Shown here piece by piece: positions 56,829 through 64,000 of a DNA stretch of 64,000 bases. Made by a program: the position numbers and the translations under genes. The stretch is from Gemmatimonadaceae bacterium (GTDB lineage: Bacteria > Gemmatimonadota > Gemmatimonadetes > Gemmatimonadales > Gemmatimonadaceae): the NCBI GenBank assembly GCA_051859245.1, contig JBHYGA010000004.1, positions 1,022,910-1,086,909 on the forward strand, read 5' to 3'. Numbering within the stretch: the first letter of the stretch is position 1; the number at the start of each line of letters is the position of its first letter. Below the pieces are notes generated by a model. That model was not told the origin of the DNA. It did not search any database and worked only from the letters and a program-made list of their open reading frames with translations.

Positions 56829-57785
56829 TCAGAGATAGTGCTCAACGGATTGTGTGCGAGCCGTATTCACTCGCAACTCGAACACATCAGGGCGTGCGTA
56901 GTGTCCGGTGACATCAAAATCAAATTTTCCGCGCACGGTGTCGCCGAGATCAAGATCCGCAAACAATAGCGCTTCTTCGTTGTACACGGGGCCGGCGAGC
57001 ACGTCGCCAAGCGGACTGATAATGCAACTTCCACCGGCCGTAAGAATCGCGTCTGGCGCAAGTCCCGCGGCAAAACCTTCGTCGAGCGGATAGTCAGACG
57101 GATAGTCCGTGCGGCGCGCGAACTGGTTGGCGGAGAGTACAAAACACCGTCCTTCCATGGCCACGTGTCGCATGGTGGCAATCCACGAGTCGCGACTGTC
57201 CGCGGTTGGTGCGAGATAGATCTGCACGCCCTGTCCGTACAACGACATGCGATACATGGGCATGTAACTCTCCCAGCAAATCGCAGCGCCGAGTGTTCCT
57301 GCCGCTGTGTGGTGCACCTGCATGGTGCTACCGTCTCCTTGTCCCCACACCAGTCGCTCTGCTGCCGTTGGCATGAGCTTGCGATGTTTGCCGAGCAGCG
57401 CGCCGTCAGGTGCAAAGAACAGCGCGGTGCAATAGAGCGTGCCGCCGTCGCGCTCGATCACGCCGATCACCAGATGTACGCGGTGTTCGCGCGCGATATC
57501 GCCGAGCAGTTTGGTATGCTCGCCAGGGACATCAATGCTCGATTCCCAGTAACGCCGATACCATTCGCGCCCCTCGGCTGAACGACTGCCGATCACCGTG
57601 CCAAACGTGAGACCACGCGGGTACGCGCTGACAAACGCTTCGGGAAACAGGACAAGCGTTGCACCACCGGCCGCCGCCGCAGCGGTGCGTTCGGCAACAC
57701 GCGTGATGGTGGCATCACGGTTGAAGCTTACCGGCGCTGATTGCACAACGGCTGCACGCACAGGTTTGGAGGGGATCATAGACAT
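56829..57785 (-). CDS. Nitrilase (carbon-nitrogen hydrolase)
   Basis: FPEA, HRKLMPT and ICWES catalytic triad; GHYARPD. Confidence 0.92.
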   Translation of the reverse strand: MSMIPSKPVRAAVVQSAPVSFNRDATITRVAERTAAAAAGGATLVLFPEAFVSAYPRGLTFGTVIGSRSAEGREWYRRYWESSIDVPGEHTKLLGDIAREHRVHLVIGVIERDGGTLYCTALFFAPDGALLGKHRKLMPTAAERLVWGQGDGSTMQVHHTAAGTLGAAICWESYMPMYRMSLYGQGVQIYLAPTADSRDSWIATMRHVAMEGRCFVLSANQFARRTDYPSDYPLDEGFAAGLAPDAILTAGGSCIISPLGDVLAGPVYNEEALLFADLDLGDTVRGKFDFDVTGHYARPDVFELRVNTARTQSVEHYL

Positions 57786-57810
57786 GCGGAAATCTCGCTA
57801 GATTCACCGA

Positions 57811-59031
57811 ATGAGCAACTCGCGCGCCGGCGATGGCGCCTCTCCGCGACGCGGCCGGTCACGTTTGCTGCGACTCGTGCTGCGCGGTGCCGTGGCGTTG
57901 GTGGTGTTACTCCTGGTGTCGGCTGGTGTGCTGTGGGCGATTGCCTGGGATGCCATTGGCTCGCGCCCGTCTGGCGAGCGACTCGAGCGGATTGTGCAAT
58001 CGCCGCAGTGGAGCGACGGCGCGTTCCGCAATCGATTGCCGCGCGTAGACGGACCGTACGGCGAGATGTTGCGCGAGTTCGTGTTCGGTGGGTCGGACTA
58101 CCGATTTCCTGTCTCGGCTATTCCCACCGTTTCGCGCACGGCGGCGGACTTTCTCTCGCCTCCAGCGAGTGGCCTGCGCGTCACATGGCTCGGCCATTCC
58201 ACGCTGTTGCTTGAGATTGACGGACAACGTGTGCTGATCGACCCGGTGTGGGGTGAACGTGTCTCGCCGTTCACCTTCCTCGGCCCCAAGCGCTTTTATC
58301 AACCGCCGCTCGCGCTTGACGCGTTGCCCGCGATTGATGCGGTGGTGATCTCGCACGATCACTACGATCATCTCGACATGCCGACCGTCAAAGCGCTGAT
58401 CACCCGCGATGTGCTCTTCGTTGTGCCGCTCGGCGTTGGTTCGCATCTCGAGCACTGGGGCGTGCCGCCGGCGCGCATTCGCGAGCTCGACTGGTGGGAT
58501 ACAACGGTGGTTGGCGAAATCACGCTCACAGCGACACCGGCGCGCCACTTTTCGGGTCGCGGTGTGAACGATGCAGGTGCCACCTTGTGGAGCGGCTGGG
58601 CGATCACCACCGACACACATCGCGTGTACTACAGCGGCGATACCTCGCTCGATGAGTTCATGGCCGAGATTGGCACGCGTCTTGGTCCGTTTGATCTTAC
58701 AATGATCGAAGCCGGCGCGTACGATGCACTTTGGGCTGATGTGCATTTGGGTCCTGAACAAGCAGTGCGCGCGCACCAGCTCGTACGCGGCAAGGTGCTG
58801 CTGCCCGTGCATTGGGGGTTGTTTGATCTGGCGCTGCATGGCTGGACGGAGCCAATTGAACGCGTGCTGGTGGCGGCGGAAGCGGCGGGTGTCGCGGTGG
58901 CCACGCCCAGGCCCGGTGAATCGGTGGAACCATCGGCGCTCAGCACGCAAAACAGATGGTGGCCGATGGTGCCGTGGCGCACTGTTGCAGACGCACCGGC
59001 ATGGTCGAGTGGAACTGAACGCTTCAGATAG
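57811..59031 (+). CDS. MBL-fold metallohydrolase (RomA/NAPE-PLD-like)
   Basis: WLGHST, SHDHYDHLD, PARHFSGR, SGDT and PVHWG motifs. Confidence 0.9.
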   Translation: MSNSRAGDGASPRRGRSRLLRLVLRGAVALVVLLLVSAGVLWAIAWDAIGSRPSGERLERIVQSPQWSDGAFRNRLPRVDGPYGEMLREFVFGGSDYRFPVSAIPTVSRTAADFLSPPASGLRVTWLGHSTLLLEIDGQRVLIDPVWGERVSPFTFLGPKRFYQPPLALDALPAIDAVVISHDHYDHLDMPTVKALITRDVLFVVPLGVGSHLEHWGVPPARIRELDWWDTTVVGEITLTATPARHFSGRGVNDAGATLWSGWAITTDTHRVYYSGDTSLDEFMAEIGTRLGPFDLTMIEAGAYDALWADVHLGPEQAVRAHQLVRGKVLLPVHWGLFDLALHGWTEPIERVLVAAEAAGVAVATPRPGESVEPSALSTQNRWWPMVPWRTVADAPAWSSGTERFR

Positions 59032-59091
59032 ACGGAGAGCTACACCGTGCGGACCTGTTCATTCCCGTTCTTTCGTGTGTCGACGAGTCGT

Positions 59092-59754
59092 ATGTCGCCG
59101 TATCGCATTTCGCCGTGTCGCTTTTTGCCACGTCACGTTTCGTCGCGTTCGGTGTTTGCTCTTGCGTCGATGCTGTGCATTGCCGCTGGAGCAATGCAGG
59201 CGCAATCGGCGGCCAACTCGCGCGGCCTGGTGTCGATTGTGATCAGCACGGACCGCGGTGATATCACGGCCGATCTCGATAGTGCGCGTGCGCCGATCAC
59301 GGTGACAAACTTTCTTCGCTACGTAGATGCGGGTCGTTTTAGCGGTGGGGCGTTTCATCGAACCGTCACGCCGCGCAATCAACCGCGCGACAGCGTGCGT
59401 ATTGAAGTGATTCAGGCGCGAGCACGCAGCTCGCAGCGCGATTCAGGTTTCGCAGCGATCCCGTTGGAGCGAACGAACACCACCGGTCTCAGACATACCG
59501 ATGGCACGCTCTCAATGGCGCGCGCAGGCGCGAATACTGCGACTTCGGCGTTCTTTATTACGATCGGCGATCAGCCGTCGCTTGATGAAGGCGGAACGCG
59601 AAATCCAGACCGCCAGGGATTCGCTGTATTTGGTCGCGTAACGAGCGGTATGAATGTAGTGCGCGCCATCCAGAACGCACCGCACCTTGAGCAGAATCTC
59701 ACACCACCAGTGGTGATCACTGGTGTGCGTCGGGTTACGCCGCCGTCGCGGTGA
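59092..59754 (+). CDS. Cyclophilin-type peptidyl-prolyl isomerase, exported
   Basis: APITVTNFLRY, FHR, GTLSMAR and FAVFGRV motifs; start uncertain (59047/59092/59170). Confidence 0.88.
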   Translation: MSPYRISPCRFLPRHVSSRSVFALASMLCIAAGAMQAQSAANSRGLVSIVISTDRGDITADLDSARAPITVTNFLRYVDAGRFSGGAFHRTVTPRNQPRDSVRIEVIQARARSSQRDSGFAAIPLERTNTTGLRHTDGTLSMARAGANTATSAFFITIGDQPSLDEGGTRNPDRQGFAVFGRVTSGMNVVRAIQNAPHLEQNLTPPVVITGVRRVTPPSR

Positions 59755-61225
59755 CCACGTCGTCTTCTTCCAGTTCACCCGGTTCGAGCTTTTCAATTGT
59801 GAATCCTGTGAATCCGTAAATCACGGAGATCAGCGGATTAATCAGATTAAAAAACGCAAAGGGCAAATACGTAAACGTGGCCACGCCAAGCGTGCCGGCC
59901 ATGAAGGCGCCGCAGGTGTTCCACGGCACGAGCGGTGACGTGAGCGTTCCACCGTCTTCCAACGCACGCGAGAGATTCTTGGCGCGCAGGCCACGGCGCT
60001 TGTACTCGGCGCGAAACATGCGTCCCGGCAGCACAATCGAGATGTACTGATCAGAAGCAACGATGTTCATGCCGATTGCCGTGCCGATGGTCGCGGCGAT
60101 CAGACTTCCCGTTCCGCGCACGGTGCTGAGAATCGCCGCGGCGATGCGCTGCAACATGCCGGTGGTCTCCATCACCGCGCCAAACGTCATCGCGGTAAGA
60201 ATGAGCCATACCGTATTCAGCATGCCCGACATGCCGCCGCGTGTGAGCAGTTCGTCGAGTGCGGCGTTACCGGATGATGACGTGTAGCCGTCAAACAACG
60301 CGGTCCACACACCTTTGATTAGCGCGAGCGTGCGTGGAAGATCCGTTTCACCCACAAAACGCAGCACCGCGTCGCCCTGAAACAGGATCGCGAACACGCT
60401 GCCTGTAAGCGCGCCAATGAGCAGGGCGGGGAACGCCGGTACTTTGCGCACCACGAGCGTGATCACAACGACCGCGGGCAGCAGCATCACCCACCCCACA
60501 TTGAACTGCGTGGCGAGCTGTGCCTGCATCGCGGCAATTTCTGGCGCGTCTGTTGCGCCGCCGAGCCACAAGCCCGCGCCTGCGAAGAGCGCGATGGCAA
60601 TGAGAATGCTCGGCGTGGTGGTCCACACCATGTGACGGATGTGCGAGAACAGATCGGTGCCAGCCATGGCTGGCGCTAGATTCGTGGTATCAGACAGCGG
60701 CGACATTTTGTCGCCGAAGTACGCGCCAGAAACAATTGCGCCGGCGGCGAGACCCAGGTGCAATCCTTGCACCGTGGCAATACCGATCAGCGCTACGCCA
60801 ATCGTGCCTGCGGTGGTCCACGAGCTGCCCGTGGCGAGCGACACGATGGCGCAGATCACCACGGCCGCGGCATAGAACCACGCGGGGCTCAAAATCGAGA
60901 GCCCCATATGAATCATTGTGGGCACGGTGCCCGACAGAATCCAGCTGCCAATCAGCGCGCCGACCATGAGCAGAATGAGAATCGCGCCCGTTGAGAGCGA
61001 GATGCCATGCACAATGCCCTGCTGCATCTCCTTCCATGAATATCCGTTGCGCCAGCCGAGCAGCGCACCGATCATGGCCGCGAAAATGAGAGCAAGTTGA
61101 TTGGGGCCGGACGAGGAGCCATCACCATACAGGTACACGGAGCTGGCGAGCAGTCCGATCAGTACCAGAATGGGAAGCATCGACTCGACGAGCCCAGGCG
61201 CGCGCTTGTCGGAGGGAGTGGTCAC
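59735..61225 (-). CDS. nhaC: Na+/H+ antiporter, NhaC family
   Basis: GSSWTT, GAYFGDKMSPLSDTTNLA and LVPWN motifs. Confidence 0.92.
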   Translation of the reverse strand: MTTPSDKRAPGLVESMLPILVLIGLLASSVYLYGDGSSSGPNQLALIFAAMIGALLGWRNGYSWKEMQQGIVHGISLSTGAILILLMVGALIGSWILSGTVPTMIHMGLSILSPAWFYAAAVVICAIVSLATGSSWTTAGTIGVALIGIATVQGLHLGLAAGAIVSGAYFGDKMSPLSDTTNLAPAMAGTDLFSHIRHMVWTTTPSILIAIALFAGAGLWLGGATDAPEIAAMQAQLATQFNVGWVMLLPAVVVITLVVRKVPAFPALLIGALTGSVFAILFQGDAVLRFVGETDLPRTLALIKGVWTALFDGYTSSSGNAALDELLTRGGMSGMLNTVWLILTAMTFGAVMETTGMLQRIAAAILSTVRGTGSLIAATIGTAIGMNIVASDQYISIVLPGRMFRAEYKRRGLRAKNLSRALEDGGTLTSPLVPWNTCGAFMAGTLGVATFTYLPFAFFNLINPLISVIYGFTGFTIEKLEPGELEEDDVVTATAA

Positions 61226-61252
61226 GCGGGAAAGGTGCGCGAGTGTTGCGGT

Positions 61253-62407
61253 TCAGGGCAAGAGTGCATTCCAGAGGTGATTCCAGCTGTTCATCCCACC
61301 GGCGAGCGACGAAACGCGCGCGAATCCAGCAGCCTGAAGCTGACGGGCAGCCGTCGCGCTGCGCTTTCCACTCTGACACAACACAATGATTTCTCGCGCG
61401 GCGTCGAGCTCGGACATGCGGCCTTCGAGCGAACCGAGTGGAATCAATCGGGCCGAATCAATGCGAGATACCGCCGCCTCATGCGGTTCGCGAACGTCGA
61501 TGAGTTCGAAATCGTGAGTACGCGCAAGTCTGGTGGCCAACTGTTCCGCTGAAATTTCACGCACGGTGGCGTCAGCGGCGGCGCGCGACGACTGCGCGTC
61601 GAGCGACGGCGTGCCGCAAAAGGCGTCGTAATCAATGAGCTCCGTGATCGTGCGTGTGCCACAGGCGGGACAGGCCGGATCTCGTGAGATGCGCACATGC
61701 CGGAACTGCATGCCGAGCGTGTCGATCATGAGCAGACGACCGGCGAGCGAGTCACCGAGGCCAAGAATCAGCTTGATCGTTTCGACGGCCTGAATCGTGC
61801 CGATCAATCCGGGCAGCACGCCGAGCACACCTCCCTCGGCACAGTTCGGCACGGAGCCGGCGGGTGGTGGCTCCGGATACAGGCAGCGATAGCAGGGCCC
61901 GTCCTCGGTAGCGAACACTGATGCTTGTCCGTCGAACTGAAAAATCGAGCCGTGCACATTGGGTTTGCCAAGCAGCACACAGGCGTCGTTCACGAGATAG
62001 CGCGTAGCAAAATTGTCGGTGCCGTCAATGACAATGTCGTACGCGCCAATGAGTGCCATGGCGTTGTTCGACGTGAGCCACGCGTCGTGCGTTTCTACTT
62101 TCACGTGCGGATTTACATCGCGCAGTCGGTCGCGCGCCGAGTCGAGCTTGGGCCGGCCTACGTCTCGCGTACCGTGCAGGAGTTGGCGCTGCAGATTCGA
62201 TTCGTCGACCAGATCGTGGTCCACGAGTCCCAGCGTGCCGACACCGGCCGCGGCCAGATAGAGGGCCGTGGGTGAGCCAAGTCCGCCAGCGCCCACAATG
62301 AGCACGCGCGCGGCCTTGAGGCGGCGTTGCCCGTCTACGCCAACACCCGGCAGCAGCAGATGTCGGTCGTAGCGTCGAAATTCGTCGGCCGAAAGCGACA
62401 AGGTCAT
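61253..62407 (-). CDS. moeB: MoeB/MoeZ E1-like adenylyltransferase fused to a rhodanese domain
   Basis: GAGGLG, SNLQRQ, CYRC, PNCAEGG and CPAC motifs; rhodanese active site CQSGKRS. Confidence 0.93.
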   Translation of the reverse strand: MTLSLSADEFRRYDRHLLLPGVGVDGQRRLKAARVLIVGAGGLGSPTALYLAAAGVGTLGLVDHDLVDESNLQRQLLHGTRDVGRPKLDSARDRLRDVNPHVKVETHDAWLTSNNAMALIGAYDIVIDGTDNFATRYLVNDACVLLGKPNVHGSIFQFDGQASVFATEDGPCYRCLYPEPPPAGSVPNCAEGGVLGVLPGLIGTIQAVETIKLILGLGDSLAGRLLMIDTLGMQFRHVRISRDPACPACGTRTITELIDYDAFCGTPSLDAQSSRAAADATVREISAEQLATRLARTHDFELIDVREPHEAAVSRIDSARLIPLGSLEGRMSELDAAREIIVLCQSGKRSATAARQLQAAGFARVSSLAGGMNSWNHLWNALLP

Positions 62408-62518
62408 AGGTGAAGCCTGAACGAGGCTGCAGGAATGCGCAACCGGTGCGCCGTTCTGTGGTGTCGCGTTGCTGGCACAGAGGTTACAATCTCGCCCTGA
62501 CCCCCCAAGGAGAACACC

Positions 62519-63631
62519 ATGCGTCGAGTACGGGTGCTGGTTGGTACGCGCAAAGGCGCGTTCATTCTGACATCGGATGAAGCGCGGAAAGACTGGACGG
62601 TGAACGGTCCGCACTTTCCCGGCTGGGAGATGTACCATCTGAAGGGTTCGCCAGTGGATCCGAACCGCATCTATGCGTCGCAATCAAGCGGCTGGTTTGG
62701 ACAGCTCATTCAGCGGAGCGATGACGGCGGCGCAACGTGGACGACAATGGACAATCAGTTCACGTACAACGGTGATCCGGGTACGCACATGTGGTACGAC
62801 GGCACACCGCATCCGTGGGAGTTTAAACGCGTGTGGCACTTTGAGCCGTCGCTCACCGACCGTGATACGGTGTACGCGGGTGTTGAAGACGCGTCGTTGT
62901 TCAAGTCGACAGACGGTGGTGCGAGTTGGCACGAACTGTCGGGACTGCGCGAACACGGATCGGGCCCGCAGTGGCAGCCTGGCGCCGGCGGTTTGTGCTT
63001 GCACACGATTGTGATTGATCCCACCAACCCTGATCGCCTCTTCGTGGCGATTTCTGCAGCCGGAGCATTTCGGAGTGAAGACGGCGGAGTTTCGTGGACG
63101 CCGATCAACAAGGGGCTGCGTTCAGGCGAAATTCCCGATCAGGATTCCGAGGTCGGACATTGTGTGCATCGTATCGCCATGCACCCGTCCAATCCGCAGC
63201 GCTTGTACATGCAAAAGCACTGGGATGTGATGCGCAGTGACAATGGCGGTGATTCGTGGCATGAAGTAAGCGGTAATCTGCCCACCGATTTCGGATTTCC
63301 GATTGCTGTGCATGCGCACGAACCAGATACGATTTACGTGGTGCCAATCACGAGCGATTCACATCACTTTCCGCCTGACGGCAAGTTGCGCGTGTATCGC
63401 AGTCGCACGGGCGGCGATGTGTGGGAAGAGCTCAGCAACGGTTTGCCGCCCAGGGATTGTTATGTGAATGTGCTGCGTGACGCGATGGCGGTGGATGATT
63501 GCGATTCGTGCGGCATTTATTTTGGCACGAGTGGCGGCCAGGTGTACGTCTCGAGCGATTCCGGCGATCACTGGATGCCAATTGTGCACGACTTGCCGCC
63601 GGTGATGTCGGTGGAAGTGCAGACGTTGTGA
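62519..63631 (+). CDS. BNR/Asp-box repeat beta-propeller protein (sialidase-like), no signal peptide
   Basis: Six S.DGG..W-type boxes; GTRKG N-terminus; AAGGAG RBS. Confidence 0.85.
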
Positions 63632-63927
63632 GTGTGCGTGTGGTGCTCCCGTCACCGCTGCGCGTGATTGCGCGCGTGGGGAGCGAGATTACAGTGCCGG
63701 TGCACGGCAAGGTGACAGTCCGCACGGTGGTCGATGCGATTGAGGCACAGTATCCCATGCTGCGCGGTACGATACGAGATCACGTCACGCGGCAGCGGCG
63801 AGCGTTTGTGCGGTTCTTTGCCTGTGAGGAGGACTGGTCGCTGCGGTCGGTGGATGAGGAGTTGCCGGCGAGTGTGGCGGATGGGAGTGAGCCGTTACTG
63901 GTGGTTGGGGCGATGGCGGGTGGATGA
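63628..63927 (+). CDS. MoaD/ThiS-family ubiquitin-like protein
   Basis: 99 aa ending GAMAGG; YP.LRG motif; GTGA overlap with the upstream stop codon. Confidence 0.9.
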
Positions 63928-63933
63928 TCCGCT

Positions 63934-63998
63934 GTTGCAGTTCCTGATTCGGTCATTCGGCCCTTCAGCTGGAGCCCACGGCCATTTGGCCTTTCGGC
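63934..63998. repeat. Third arm copy of repeat family B, at the window edge
   Basis: GTTGCAGTTCCTGATTCG..CATTCGGCC...GGAGCCCA.GGCCATTTGGCCTTTCGGC matches the 31772 arm. Confidence 0.8.
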
Positions 63999-64000
63999 CT

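Follow-up and report, generated by a model that had tools for sequence, protein, structure and literature searches.

At the end of a Gemmatimonadaceae contig we found a beta-propeller gene and a gene for a small ubiquitin-like protein (Ubl) that overlap each other and lie divergently from an E1 gene of the MoeB/MoeZ type. The window, by which we mean the whole stretch of DNA that was analysed, makes up the final 64 kb of contig C4 in a genome (G000) that is 99.87% complete. The E1 gene (61253..62407, minus strand) encodes a MoeB/MoeZ-type E1 of 384 amino acids with a C-terminal rhodanese, recognised by Pfam ThiF and Rhodanese and by NCBIfam MoeB. A divergent intergenic region of 111 base pairs (bp; 62408..62518), described from its sequence and an alignment of 13 Gemmatimonadaceae regions, separates it from the plus-strand gene of a seven-bladed Asp-box beta-propeller of 370 amino acids (62519..63631), assigned by Pfam, a structure model and a match to PDB 3B7F. 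The Ubl gene (63628..63927, plus strand) encodes a protein of 99 amino acids that ends in GAMAGG and is of the ThiS/MoaD class, as judged from a model, Foldseek and hhalign. Its GTG start codon at 63628 overlaps the TGA stop codon of the propeller gene (63629-63631) as GTGA, an overlap of 4 nucleotides (nt). A sequence-only reading of this DNA had described moeB, the propeller and the small gene with its Gly-Gly (GG) end, the translational coupling of the latter two through GTGA, and a distance of about 110 bp to the divergent moeB, and all of these were found in the sequence.

Based on a scan with one genome per species we collected 595 relatives of the propeller and surveyed the neighbourhoods of the best 80 of these 595, in which the propeller is 68-85% identical to that of the window and which carry 13 phylum labels. 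Adjacency was counted with tblastn, and the other genes of the neighbourhoods come from heuristic gene calls. It was found that the Ubl gene lies directly 3' of the propeller gene in 79 of the 80 loci, the exception having just 14 nt of downstream sequence, and that the 4-nt overlap of start and stop codons is present in 68 of the 79. Similarly, the Ubl gene follows the propeller gene in 18 of 19 loci of related genomes, the nineteenth of which stops 125 nt past the gene; these kin genomes are non-independent samples, and their tally includes one unpublished genome (G021). Among 12 distant paralogue loci (30-47% identity) an adjacent small open reading frame (ORF) matching the Ubl profile was detected in nine, all nine ending in SGG, with the small ORF upstream of the propeller in three and downstream in six. 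The gene order propeller-Ubl is far beyond chance, and the propeller together with the Ubl is the conserved unit. The pairing noted in the sequence-only reading is thus conserved in orthologues (79/80) and, with a variable gene order, in paralogues (9/12).

The structure model of the Ubl was confident (predicted local distance difference test, pLDDT, 91.9) and has a beta-grasp fold of the MoaD/CysO/SAMP type. Its Foldseek matches were SAMP1 as the best (template modelling score, TM, 0.76), CysO of the BexX and CysM complexes (0.67-0.71), human MOCS2A (0.64) and Urm1. When the Ubl alignment was compared by hhalign with the nine paralogue partners, a probability of 97.9% and an E value of 5e-13 were obtained over 93 columns, with the Gly-Gly ends aligned, and the paralogue partners that were tested against Pfam ThiS (PF02597) all matched it (6/6), with 31-47 bits at a cut-off of 22.5. 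The identity to the genome's own MoaD was 29% over 79 residues, and a PF02597 scan of the same genome recovered MoaD and ThiS and did not recover the Ubl gene at E <= 1. By fold and profile comparison the Ubl belongs to the ThiS/MoaD class, and its thiocarboxylation is predicted; the earlier description of a MoaD/ThiS-like, GG-ending protein agrees with the beta-grasp model, the GAMAGG end and the profile link to PF02597 members. Of the 78 complete Ubl ORFs, 75 have the GG terminus, 74 of them as AGG, and the three ORFs that lack it are two read-through ORFs and one with a two-residue extension. Also conserved in the protein are four arginines of a basic patch, which are invariant (Arg50, Arg57, Arg58, Arg62), and Cys66, which is nearly so. 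Two extended Ubl frames were seen in low-coverage metagenome bins: in L098 (1950-3182), one of the read-through ORFs, the frame runs into an extracytoplasmic function (ECF) sigma factor with a SnoaL-like domain, and in L053 (1200-1883) it runs into YjbR with the GG end still kept. They may be real fusions or assembly errors.

The propeller protein matches Pfam Sortilin-Vps10 (5.4e-16) and BNR, and both the six Asp-boxes (residues 66-74, 130-137, 186-193, 240-247, 295-302 and 345-352) and the motifs GLCLH (158-162), GHCVH (213-217) and QKHW (232-235) can be read in its sequence, as had been noticed earlier. The structure model reached a pLDDT of 94.5 and a predicted TM of 0.93. A signal peptide, the lack of which had likewise been noted, is unlikely because residues 3-10 already build the first strand of this confident model. 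The only solved relative is PDB 3B7F (phmmer 8.2e-69, Foldseek TM 0.90, VIA Z 51.2), which is Reut_B4987/YP_299179.1 from Ralstonia eutropha JMP134, a structural-genomics entry named 'putative glycosyl hydrolase with BNR repeats' that has no assigned function. The next structural matches were generic seven-bladed propellers at Z 28 or lower, and a protein Atlas search with the propeller returned only clusters of its own family.

The database names of its relatives, 'exo-alpha-sialidase' and 'glycosyl hydrolase, BNR repeat', do not fit the protein. The hallmark motif of sialidases is FRIP, and the propeller sequence does not contain any RIP tripeptide. A GH33 sialidase needs six blades, and both our model and 3B7F have seven; the sole sialidase-related Pfam model at E <= 0.01 was BNR_3, with 15.8 bits against a cut-off of 27. 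In the article PMC2716378, sialidases are given six blades and 3B7F seven with five Asp-boxes, and the function of 3B7F is called 'not known'. A GH74 xyloglucanase is a tandem of two seven-bladed propellers (about 700-790 residues) and was rejected for this single propeller of 370 amino acids, to which GH74 chains of 696-789 residues aligned only partly (TM 0.27-0.63, normalised to the query). Ycf48/HCF136 was also rejected, with 18.2 bits for PSII_BNR (PF14870) against a cut-off of 27 and Foldseek TM values of 0.52-0.54 to Ycf48 chains. Within NCBIfam a weak match to the F510_1955 glycosylhydrolase family was obtained (79.6 bits, cut-off 175). The doubt of the sequence-only reading about an ordinary sialidase was therefore justified, as the protein fails the tests of blade number, family model and FRIP motif.

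Across the propeller orthologues and their second-tier relatives, His146, His162, Cys215, His217, Gln232 and His234 are nearly invariant. In a comparison of the window protein with the 12 paralogues of known context, only His162, His217, Gln232, His234 and Arg320 were identical in all 13, and His146 and Cys160 varied among the paralogues. At position 215, 11 of the 13 have Cys and the other two have Asp (L039 and L121, both paired with a Ubl), as does 3B7F; a role of Cys215 as a universal thioester or persulfide residue, as in an E2, was rejected on these grounds. Of the 'His/Cys pocket' described earlier, the part made by His162, His217 and His234 together with Gln232 and Arg320 has held, whereas the cysteines have not. 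In the strand map of the model the conserved residues sit in C-D loops or in an A-B turn of blades 3 to 6, and because all of them do so they would lie on one face of the propeller. Three histidines and a Cys/Asp with an arginine and a glutamine close by suggest a single-metal site beside a carboxylate-binding residue, and not a glycosidase. A precedent among propellers is peptidylglycine alpha-hydroxyglycine lyase, which acts on a C-terminal glycine through a His3-zinc site together with an arginine.

The E1 gene appears in the ORF list as 61253-62683 (476 amino acids), with an N-terminal extension that lacks support; the start backed by homology is the ATG at 62407, which gives 384 amino acids. 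ThiF was matched over the full model (1.6e-83, residues 13-248) and Rhodanese at residues 287-376 (7.9e-16), and the sequence has the Gly-rich ATP loop VGAGGLGS, the zinc pairs CYRC and CPAC and the rhodanese active-site loop CQSGKR. Since it passes the NCBIfam MoeB model PRK08762 (NF006444; 486.5 bits, cut-off 449) and fails the MoeZ model NF005902 (482.1 bits, cut-off 647), we file it as MoeB-type with a rhodanese and not as a strict MoeZ equivalog. Both domains of the MoeB-rhodanese gene, which had been called intact, are present. With PADLOC models for E1-E2 proteins the moeB product was matched in its E1 portion only, and as no JAB or Prok-JAB deubiquitinase passed the cut-off in the genome either, operons of the Bil/Bub, CBASS Cap2-Cap3 and 6A-MBL types were rejected; the propeller and the Ubl had no match among the PADLOC defence models.

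In a genome-wide Pfam scan of G000 the E1 was the sole ThiF-family match over the cut-off, and for this reason it is not dedicated to the propeller-Ubl pair and must serve MoaD and ThiS too. The idea of the E1 as a dedicated component of the system had to be given up, because the housekeeping carriers depend on it. The moaD-moaE genes are located at C1:1714780-1715369, with the single moaE copy at C1:1715034 beside moaD, and thiS-thiG at C4:49023-49965. The three carriers of the genome end in PPVAGG, TAVAGG and GAMAGG, the last being the window Ubl, and one E1 would serve all three. Ten PALP (CysM-type) genes were counted in the genome, with zero inside the window, and the genome-wide scan gave no JAB match and no Prok-JAB match over the cut-off. 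The usual acceptor genes moaE, thiG and cysM-type are all sited away from the pair. The absence of moaE, thiG, cysM and JAMM genes from the window, as first noted, was confirmed; moaE, thiG and the PALP genes are sited in other parts of the genome, in which no JAMM gene was detected. The concern that moaE might lie just past the edge of the window was also settled, as its only copy is the one on contig C1.

Linkage of the E1 gene to the pair, as proposed in the sequence-only reading, was seen within one family and not beyond it. A moeB-like gene is adjacent in 10 of the 19 loci of relatives, and the block of moeB, propeller and Ubl is kept across several Gemmatimonadaceae genera in which the outer flanks differ. 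However, among the 80 broad loci a moeB-like gene occurs within 10 kb in only two, both from Gemmatimonadaceae and both divergent at 178-188 nt. The E1 link is real but narrow.

An acceptor role for the propeller is proposed because its position beside the carrier matches that of known acceptor enzymes. The sequence-only reading had placed it in this position, and the fixed adjacency (79/80, 18/19 and 9/12) supports that placement. The pair probably marks an undescribed partner enzyme for sulfur carriers. That the two proteins form a carrier-acceptor pair of a new kind, fed by a shared MoeZ-type E1 and with a metal site on the propeller, is a proposal to which we give an even chance. According to this proposal, the single MoeZ-type E1-rhodanese would adenylate the terminal glycine of the Ubl and turn it into a thiocarboxylate, as it would for MoaD and ThiS. 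The flexible GAMAGG tail would then insert at one face of the seven-bladed propeller, where His162, His217, His234 and Cys/Asp215 would hold a single metal ion and Arg320 and Gln232 would bind the terminal (thio)carboxylate. The sulfur would be transferred to a small-molecule substrate, possibly an electrophile or a stress metabolite. E1 activation, the thiocarboxylate, the metal, the docking of the tail and the substrate are what we infer in this scheme.

Several observations count against a sulfur carrier and its acceptor. The Ubl has no match to Pfam ThiS or to NCBIfam at E <= 0.01, and its profile reaches SAMP1 by sequence only at E 0.21. The metal site is a prediction from the sequence. 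Adjacency of the E1 is lineage-specific (2/80), and the enzyme has housekeeping clients. The paralogue loci L120, L122 and L125 have no adjacent Ubl, and because of these three loci the propeller fold can work without one. In addition, no candidate substrate-pathway genes recur near the pair, and its flanks vary by locus.

In a rival explanation the Ubl would act independently of any E1, as a chaperone of the propeller or as a subunit with a structural or regulatory role, and its tail would plug or complete the propeller site as a plain carboxylate, with moeB serving molybdenum cofactor and thiamine only. The E1 is not adjacent in 78 of the 80 broad loci and is a housekeeping enzyme of the genome, the Ubl of the orthologues is so far diverged from ThiS/MoaD that the Pfam model misses it, and it has its own patch of invariant arginines (50, 57, 58 and 62) and a near-invariant Cys66. 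However, a C-terminal Gly-Gly is the hallmark of E1-activated carriers, and 75 of 78 orthologue ORFs as well as 9 of 9 paralogue partners have exactly this end; the moeB-propeller-Ubl block is moreover retained over several Gemmatimonadaceae genera despite changing flanks. We consider this explanation doubtful. Conjugation of the Ubl to target lysines in the manner of Urm1, SAMP or TtuB, perhaps under oxidative stress and with the propeller as main target, adaptor or E3-like factor, would fit the conserved GG terminus and the structural matches, since SAMP1 and Urm1, which are both sulfur carriers and conjugators, are among the closest to the Ubl. It would also suit the stress-type promoters and the redox and thiol neighbours (DoxX, DinB, MsrA, HxlR) of other lineages, and peptides are bound by Asp-box propellers, for instance by sortilin and Ycf48, as the PDB titles of a sortilin-peptide and a Ycf48-D1 peptide complex indicate. 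Against it, no JAB/Prok-JAB isopeptidase was found genome-wide and PADLOC gave no E2-like match for the propeller or the Ubl; the strict 1:1 translational coupling (68/79) is typical of stoichiometric enzyme-carrier pairs, and since two paralogues that are paired with a Ubl have Asp in place of Cys215, a cysteine for a thioester or redox role is not a general feature. Conjugation is in our view unlikely.

The place of the pair next to moeB in this genome could also mean that it is an accessory branch of the moeB pathway in the maturation of molybdenum/tungsten cofactor, for example in the addition of a terminal sulfido ligand, and a YqeC-family gene does stand directly 3' of the propeller in paralogue locus L125. 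However, L125 has no Ubl and is a single locus among the 12 of paralogues, moaD and moaE are on another contig, and no molybdenum-cofactor gene was present among the Pfam-annotated clusters found in at least 3 of the 80 loci, which makes such a function very unlikely. The idea of an ordinary glycosidase, a sialidase or GH74-like enzyme standing by chance beside an unrelated moaD paralogue, draws on the names in the databases and on the weak F510_1955 match. It is barely credible in view of the near-universal pairing with the Ubl and a location of the protein that the model indicates to be cytoplasmic; the propeller is single and not a GH74 tandem, has seven blades and not six, lacks a RIP tripeptide and passes no sialidase-specific Pfam cut-off, and an identity of 68-85% across 80 loci and 13 phylum labels is unlike that of carbohydrate-active enzymes.

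Additionally, we analysed the regions upstream of the propeller. In the window the elements GCGCAACCGGTGCGCC (62437-62452) and TGTCGCGTTGCTG (62462-62474) are conserved within the genus, as seen in the 13 aligned Gemmatimonadaceae regions, and may be a candidate operator and a non-canonical promoter common to moeB and the operon. The pattern of the second element, TGTCGCG[TA]TGCTG, has a single match in the entire genome, and an AAGGAG ribosome-binding site is found at 62507-62512, 5' of the propeller. A scan of 61000-64000 gave 0 sites for the sigma-70 consensus, and neither an ECF56 nor an ECF42-like motif is present in the intergenic region of the window.

In other lineages the upstream regions were counted over the 76 loci with enough upstream sequence, with controls in random 203-nt windows giving 0.36% (ECF56) and 0.42% (ECF42-like). 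The consensus of ECF56 (SigG-type) is CGATGAGTT-N15-GTC according to a preprint (bioRxiv 10.1101/2020.01.30.927608). It was found exactly, 76-87 nt 5' of the propeller start, in 7 of the 76 loci (L041, L046, L048, L054, L078, L090 and L104), six from Actinomycetota and one from Gemmatimonas, and the pair would then belong to the ECF56 regulon in these bacteria. Near-matches to this motif lie between moeB and the propeller in the Gemmatimonadaceae loci L003 and L040. Another motif, TGTCGA-N15-19-CGAC, was found 5' of the propeller in seven other loci of the 76 (six Acidobacteriota, one Gemmatimonadales); it was derived from the same upstream sequences on which it was counted, so that only the control rate guards this count. 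It resembles the ECF42 promoters that are shown for S. meliloti in PMC6180224. The motif in the S. meliloti style, TGTC-N2-N15-18-CGTC, was present in 0 of the 76 upstream regions. The ECF42 targets SMb20475-20474 of S. meliloti were considered as candidate homologues, and no S. meliloti name was among the 60 plasmid or megaplasmid matches listed. A scan of G000 for the two motifs gave 14 and 81 matches, mostly intragenic.

Neighbouring genes were annotated from the heuristic gene calls with one Pfam-annotated representative per cluster. Among the 80 loci the recurrent neighbours were an ECF sigma factor with DUF6596 and TPR (10 loci), YCII (8), HxlR (8), DoxX_2 (7) and glyoxalase/VOC proteins (9, and 4 more with another VOC type), and the paralogue loci add DinB/MST, glyoxalase, MsrA and MBL-fold neighbours. 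The glyoxalase/VOC and YCII neighbours agree with the reported content of ECF56 and ECF42 regulons. The stress-type promoters in some lineages hint at a stress role for the pair. As a wider and more tentative proposal, possible but not one we would favour, the propeller could be the first of a new metal-dependent class that takes sulfur from a protein thiocarboxylate, and the pair a widespread and horizontally mobile pathway by which soil bacteria carry out thiolation or detoxification when stress induces it, switched on via ECF56 in Actinomycetota and via an ECF42-type factor in Acidobacteriota. As a separate observation, the YqeC-family gene of locus L125 (4758-5507, genome G076; PF19842, 3.2e-30) is directly 3' of a propeller paralogue that has no Ubl.

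The propeller family is large, with at least 8000 close relatives and 41,634 matches in a 50%-clustered library; among the matches listed there, one full-length representative was more than 60% identical and the other full-length ones were at most 57%. In the 80 orthologous propellers, identity reaches 98% or more at 149 of 370 positions and 90% or more at 236 of 370. A named homologue is BAH40688.1 of Gemmatimonas aurantiaca (UniProt C1ADW1), which is 82% identical. The distribution is patchy, as a propeller match at E <= 1e-100 was obtained in 56 of 150 near-complete Gemmatimonadota genomes, one of them unpublished (G123), and in 33 of 82 genera. When a quick maximum-likelihood tree was made, six label changes were needed for its seven Gemmatimonadota rows, and five of these are forced by well-supported branches. 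Transfer between phyla is indicated because the tree forces these changes, and bin contamination could contribute to them. One paralogue locus (L121) is on a megaplasmid of Ralstonia solanacearum (CP084739.1, 652348-655500), where a propeller of 31% identity has a MoaD/ThiS gene upstream and hppD, RidA, an MBL-fold hydrolase, the Ubl and the propeller form a same-strand run. A literature search found no paper on the propeller-Ubl pair.

On the moeB side the window contains the genes, both on the minus strand, for a carbon-nitrogen hydrolase (56829-57785) and, directly beside moeB, for an NhaC-type Na+/H+ antiporter (59735-61225). An MBL-fold protein (57811-59031) and a cyclophilin whose N-terminus has a hydrophobic extension (59047-59754) are encoded between these two. 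The antiporter gene remains the neighbour of moeB in three relatives (L022, L025 and L037), and the remaining genes at 56829-61225 seem unrelated to the propeller-Ubl pair. On the other side contig C4 terminates 73 nt past the Ubl stop codon, and because the window stops at this contig end the genes 3' of the Ubl are unassembled here. In the closest relative, whose propeller is 93% identical, genes for an SDR and a GAF protein are among those 3' of the Ubl, and their best matches in G000, with identities of 91% and 85%, are located 3.4 kb from one end of contig C10. The window probably continues into this end, a join that follows from synteny alone. The C10 end (80000-86797, locus L129) has SDR, DoxX, MarR, amidohydrolase and YCII genes and no moaE; the YCII gene stands 125 nt before the contig stops, and DoxX and YCII are families that recur near the pair in other phyla.

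To our knowledge, protein-thiocarboxylate carriers feed few acceptors, namely MoaE, ThiG, CysM, BexX, TtuA and some natural-product enzymes. If the proposed role of the propeller is true, a further acceptor type would be a new branch of bacterial sulfur trafficking, and a function would be gained for a large family that is now mislabelled 'exo-alpha-sialidase'. The promoter link would offer a concrete starting point for the ECF56/SigG and ECF42 regulons and their physiological role.

The propeller is not homologous to the known acceptor enzymes MoaE, ThiG, CysM and BexX, and the likeness to their systems is in organisation only. Its solved paralogue 3B7F keeps the residues equivalent to His146, His162, His214, His217, Gln232 and His234 in a phmmer alignment but is only 34-35% identical in structural alignments and has Asp at position 215 and Lys at position 160. 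The Urm1, SAMP1 and TtuB systems have a GG terminus and activation by a MoeB-like E1, with SAMP1 as the best structural match to our Ubl; unlike the pair described here, they have no fixed propeller partner. JAMM proteases are part of the archaeal and Thermus Ubl systems, and none was found in this genome. In MoaD-MoaE and ThiS-ThiG the tail of the carrier inserts into the active site of its partner. Both of these pairs of a small GG carrier and an acceptor are present in the same genome, and their carriers end in AGG as the Ubl does, but the propeller is unrelated to MoaE and ThiG and the distribution of its pair is patchy. A GG-terminal beta-grasp carrier with a shared MoeZ-type E1-rhodanese is also used by CysO-CysM/MoeZ of Mycobacterium tuberculosis (PDB 3DWG) and by CysO-BexX of Amycolatopsis orientalis (PDB 4N6E). 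Differing from the CysO systems, this genome gave no Mec/JAMM hydrolase. As at our locus, the carrier gene of the CysO systems stands beside the acceptor gene and one E1 acts for several carriers; however, their acceptor is a pyridoxal-phosphate enzyme or a ThiG-like TIM barrel, whereas here it would be an Asp-box propeller with a His-rich site.

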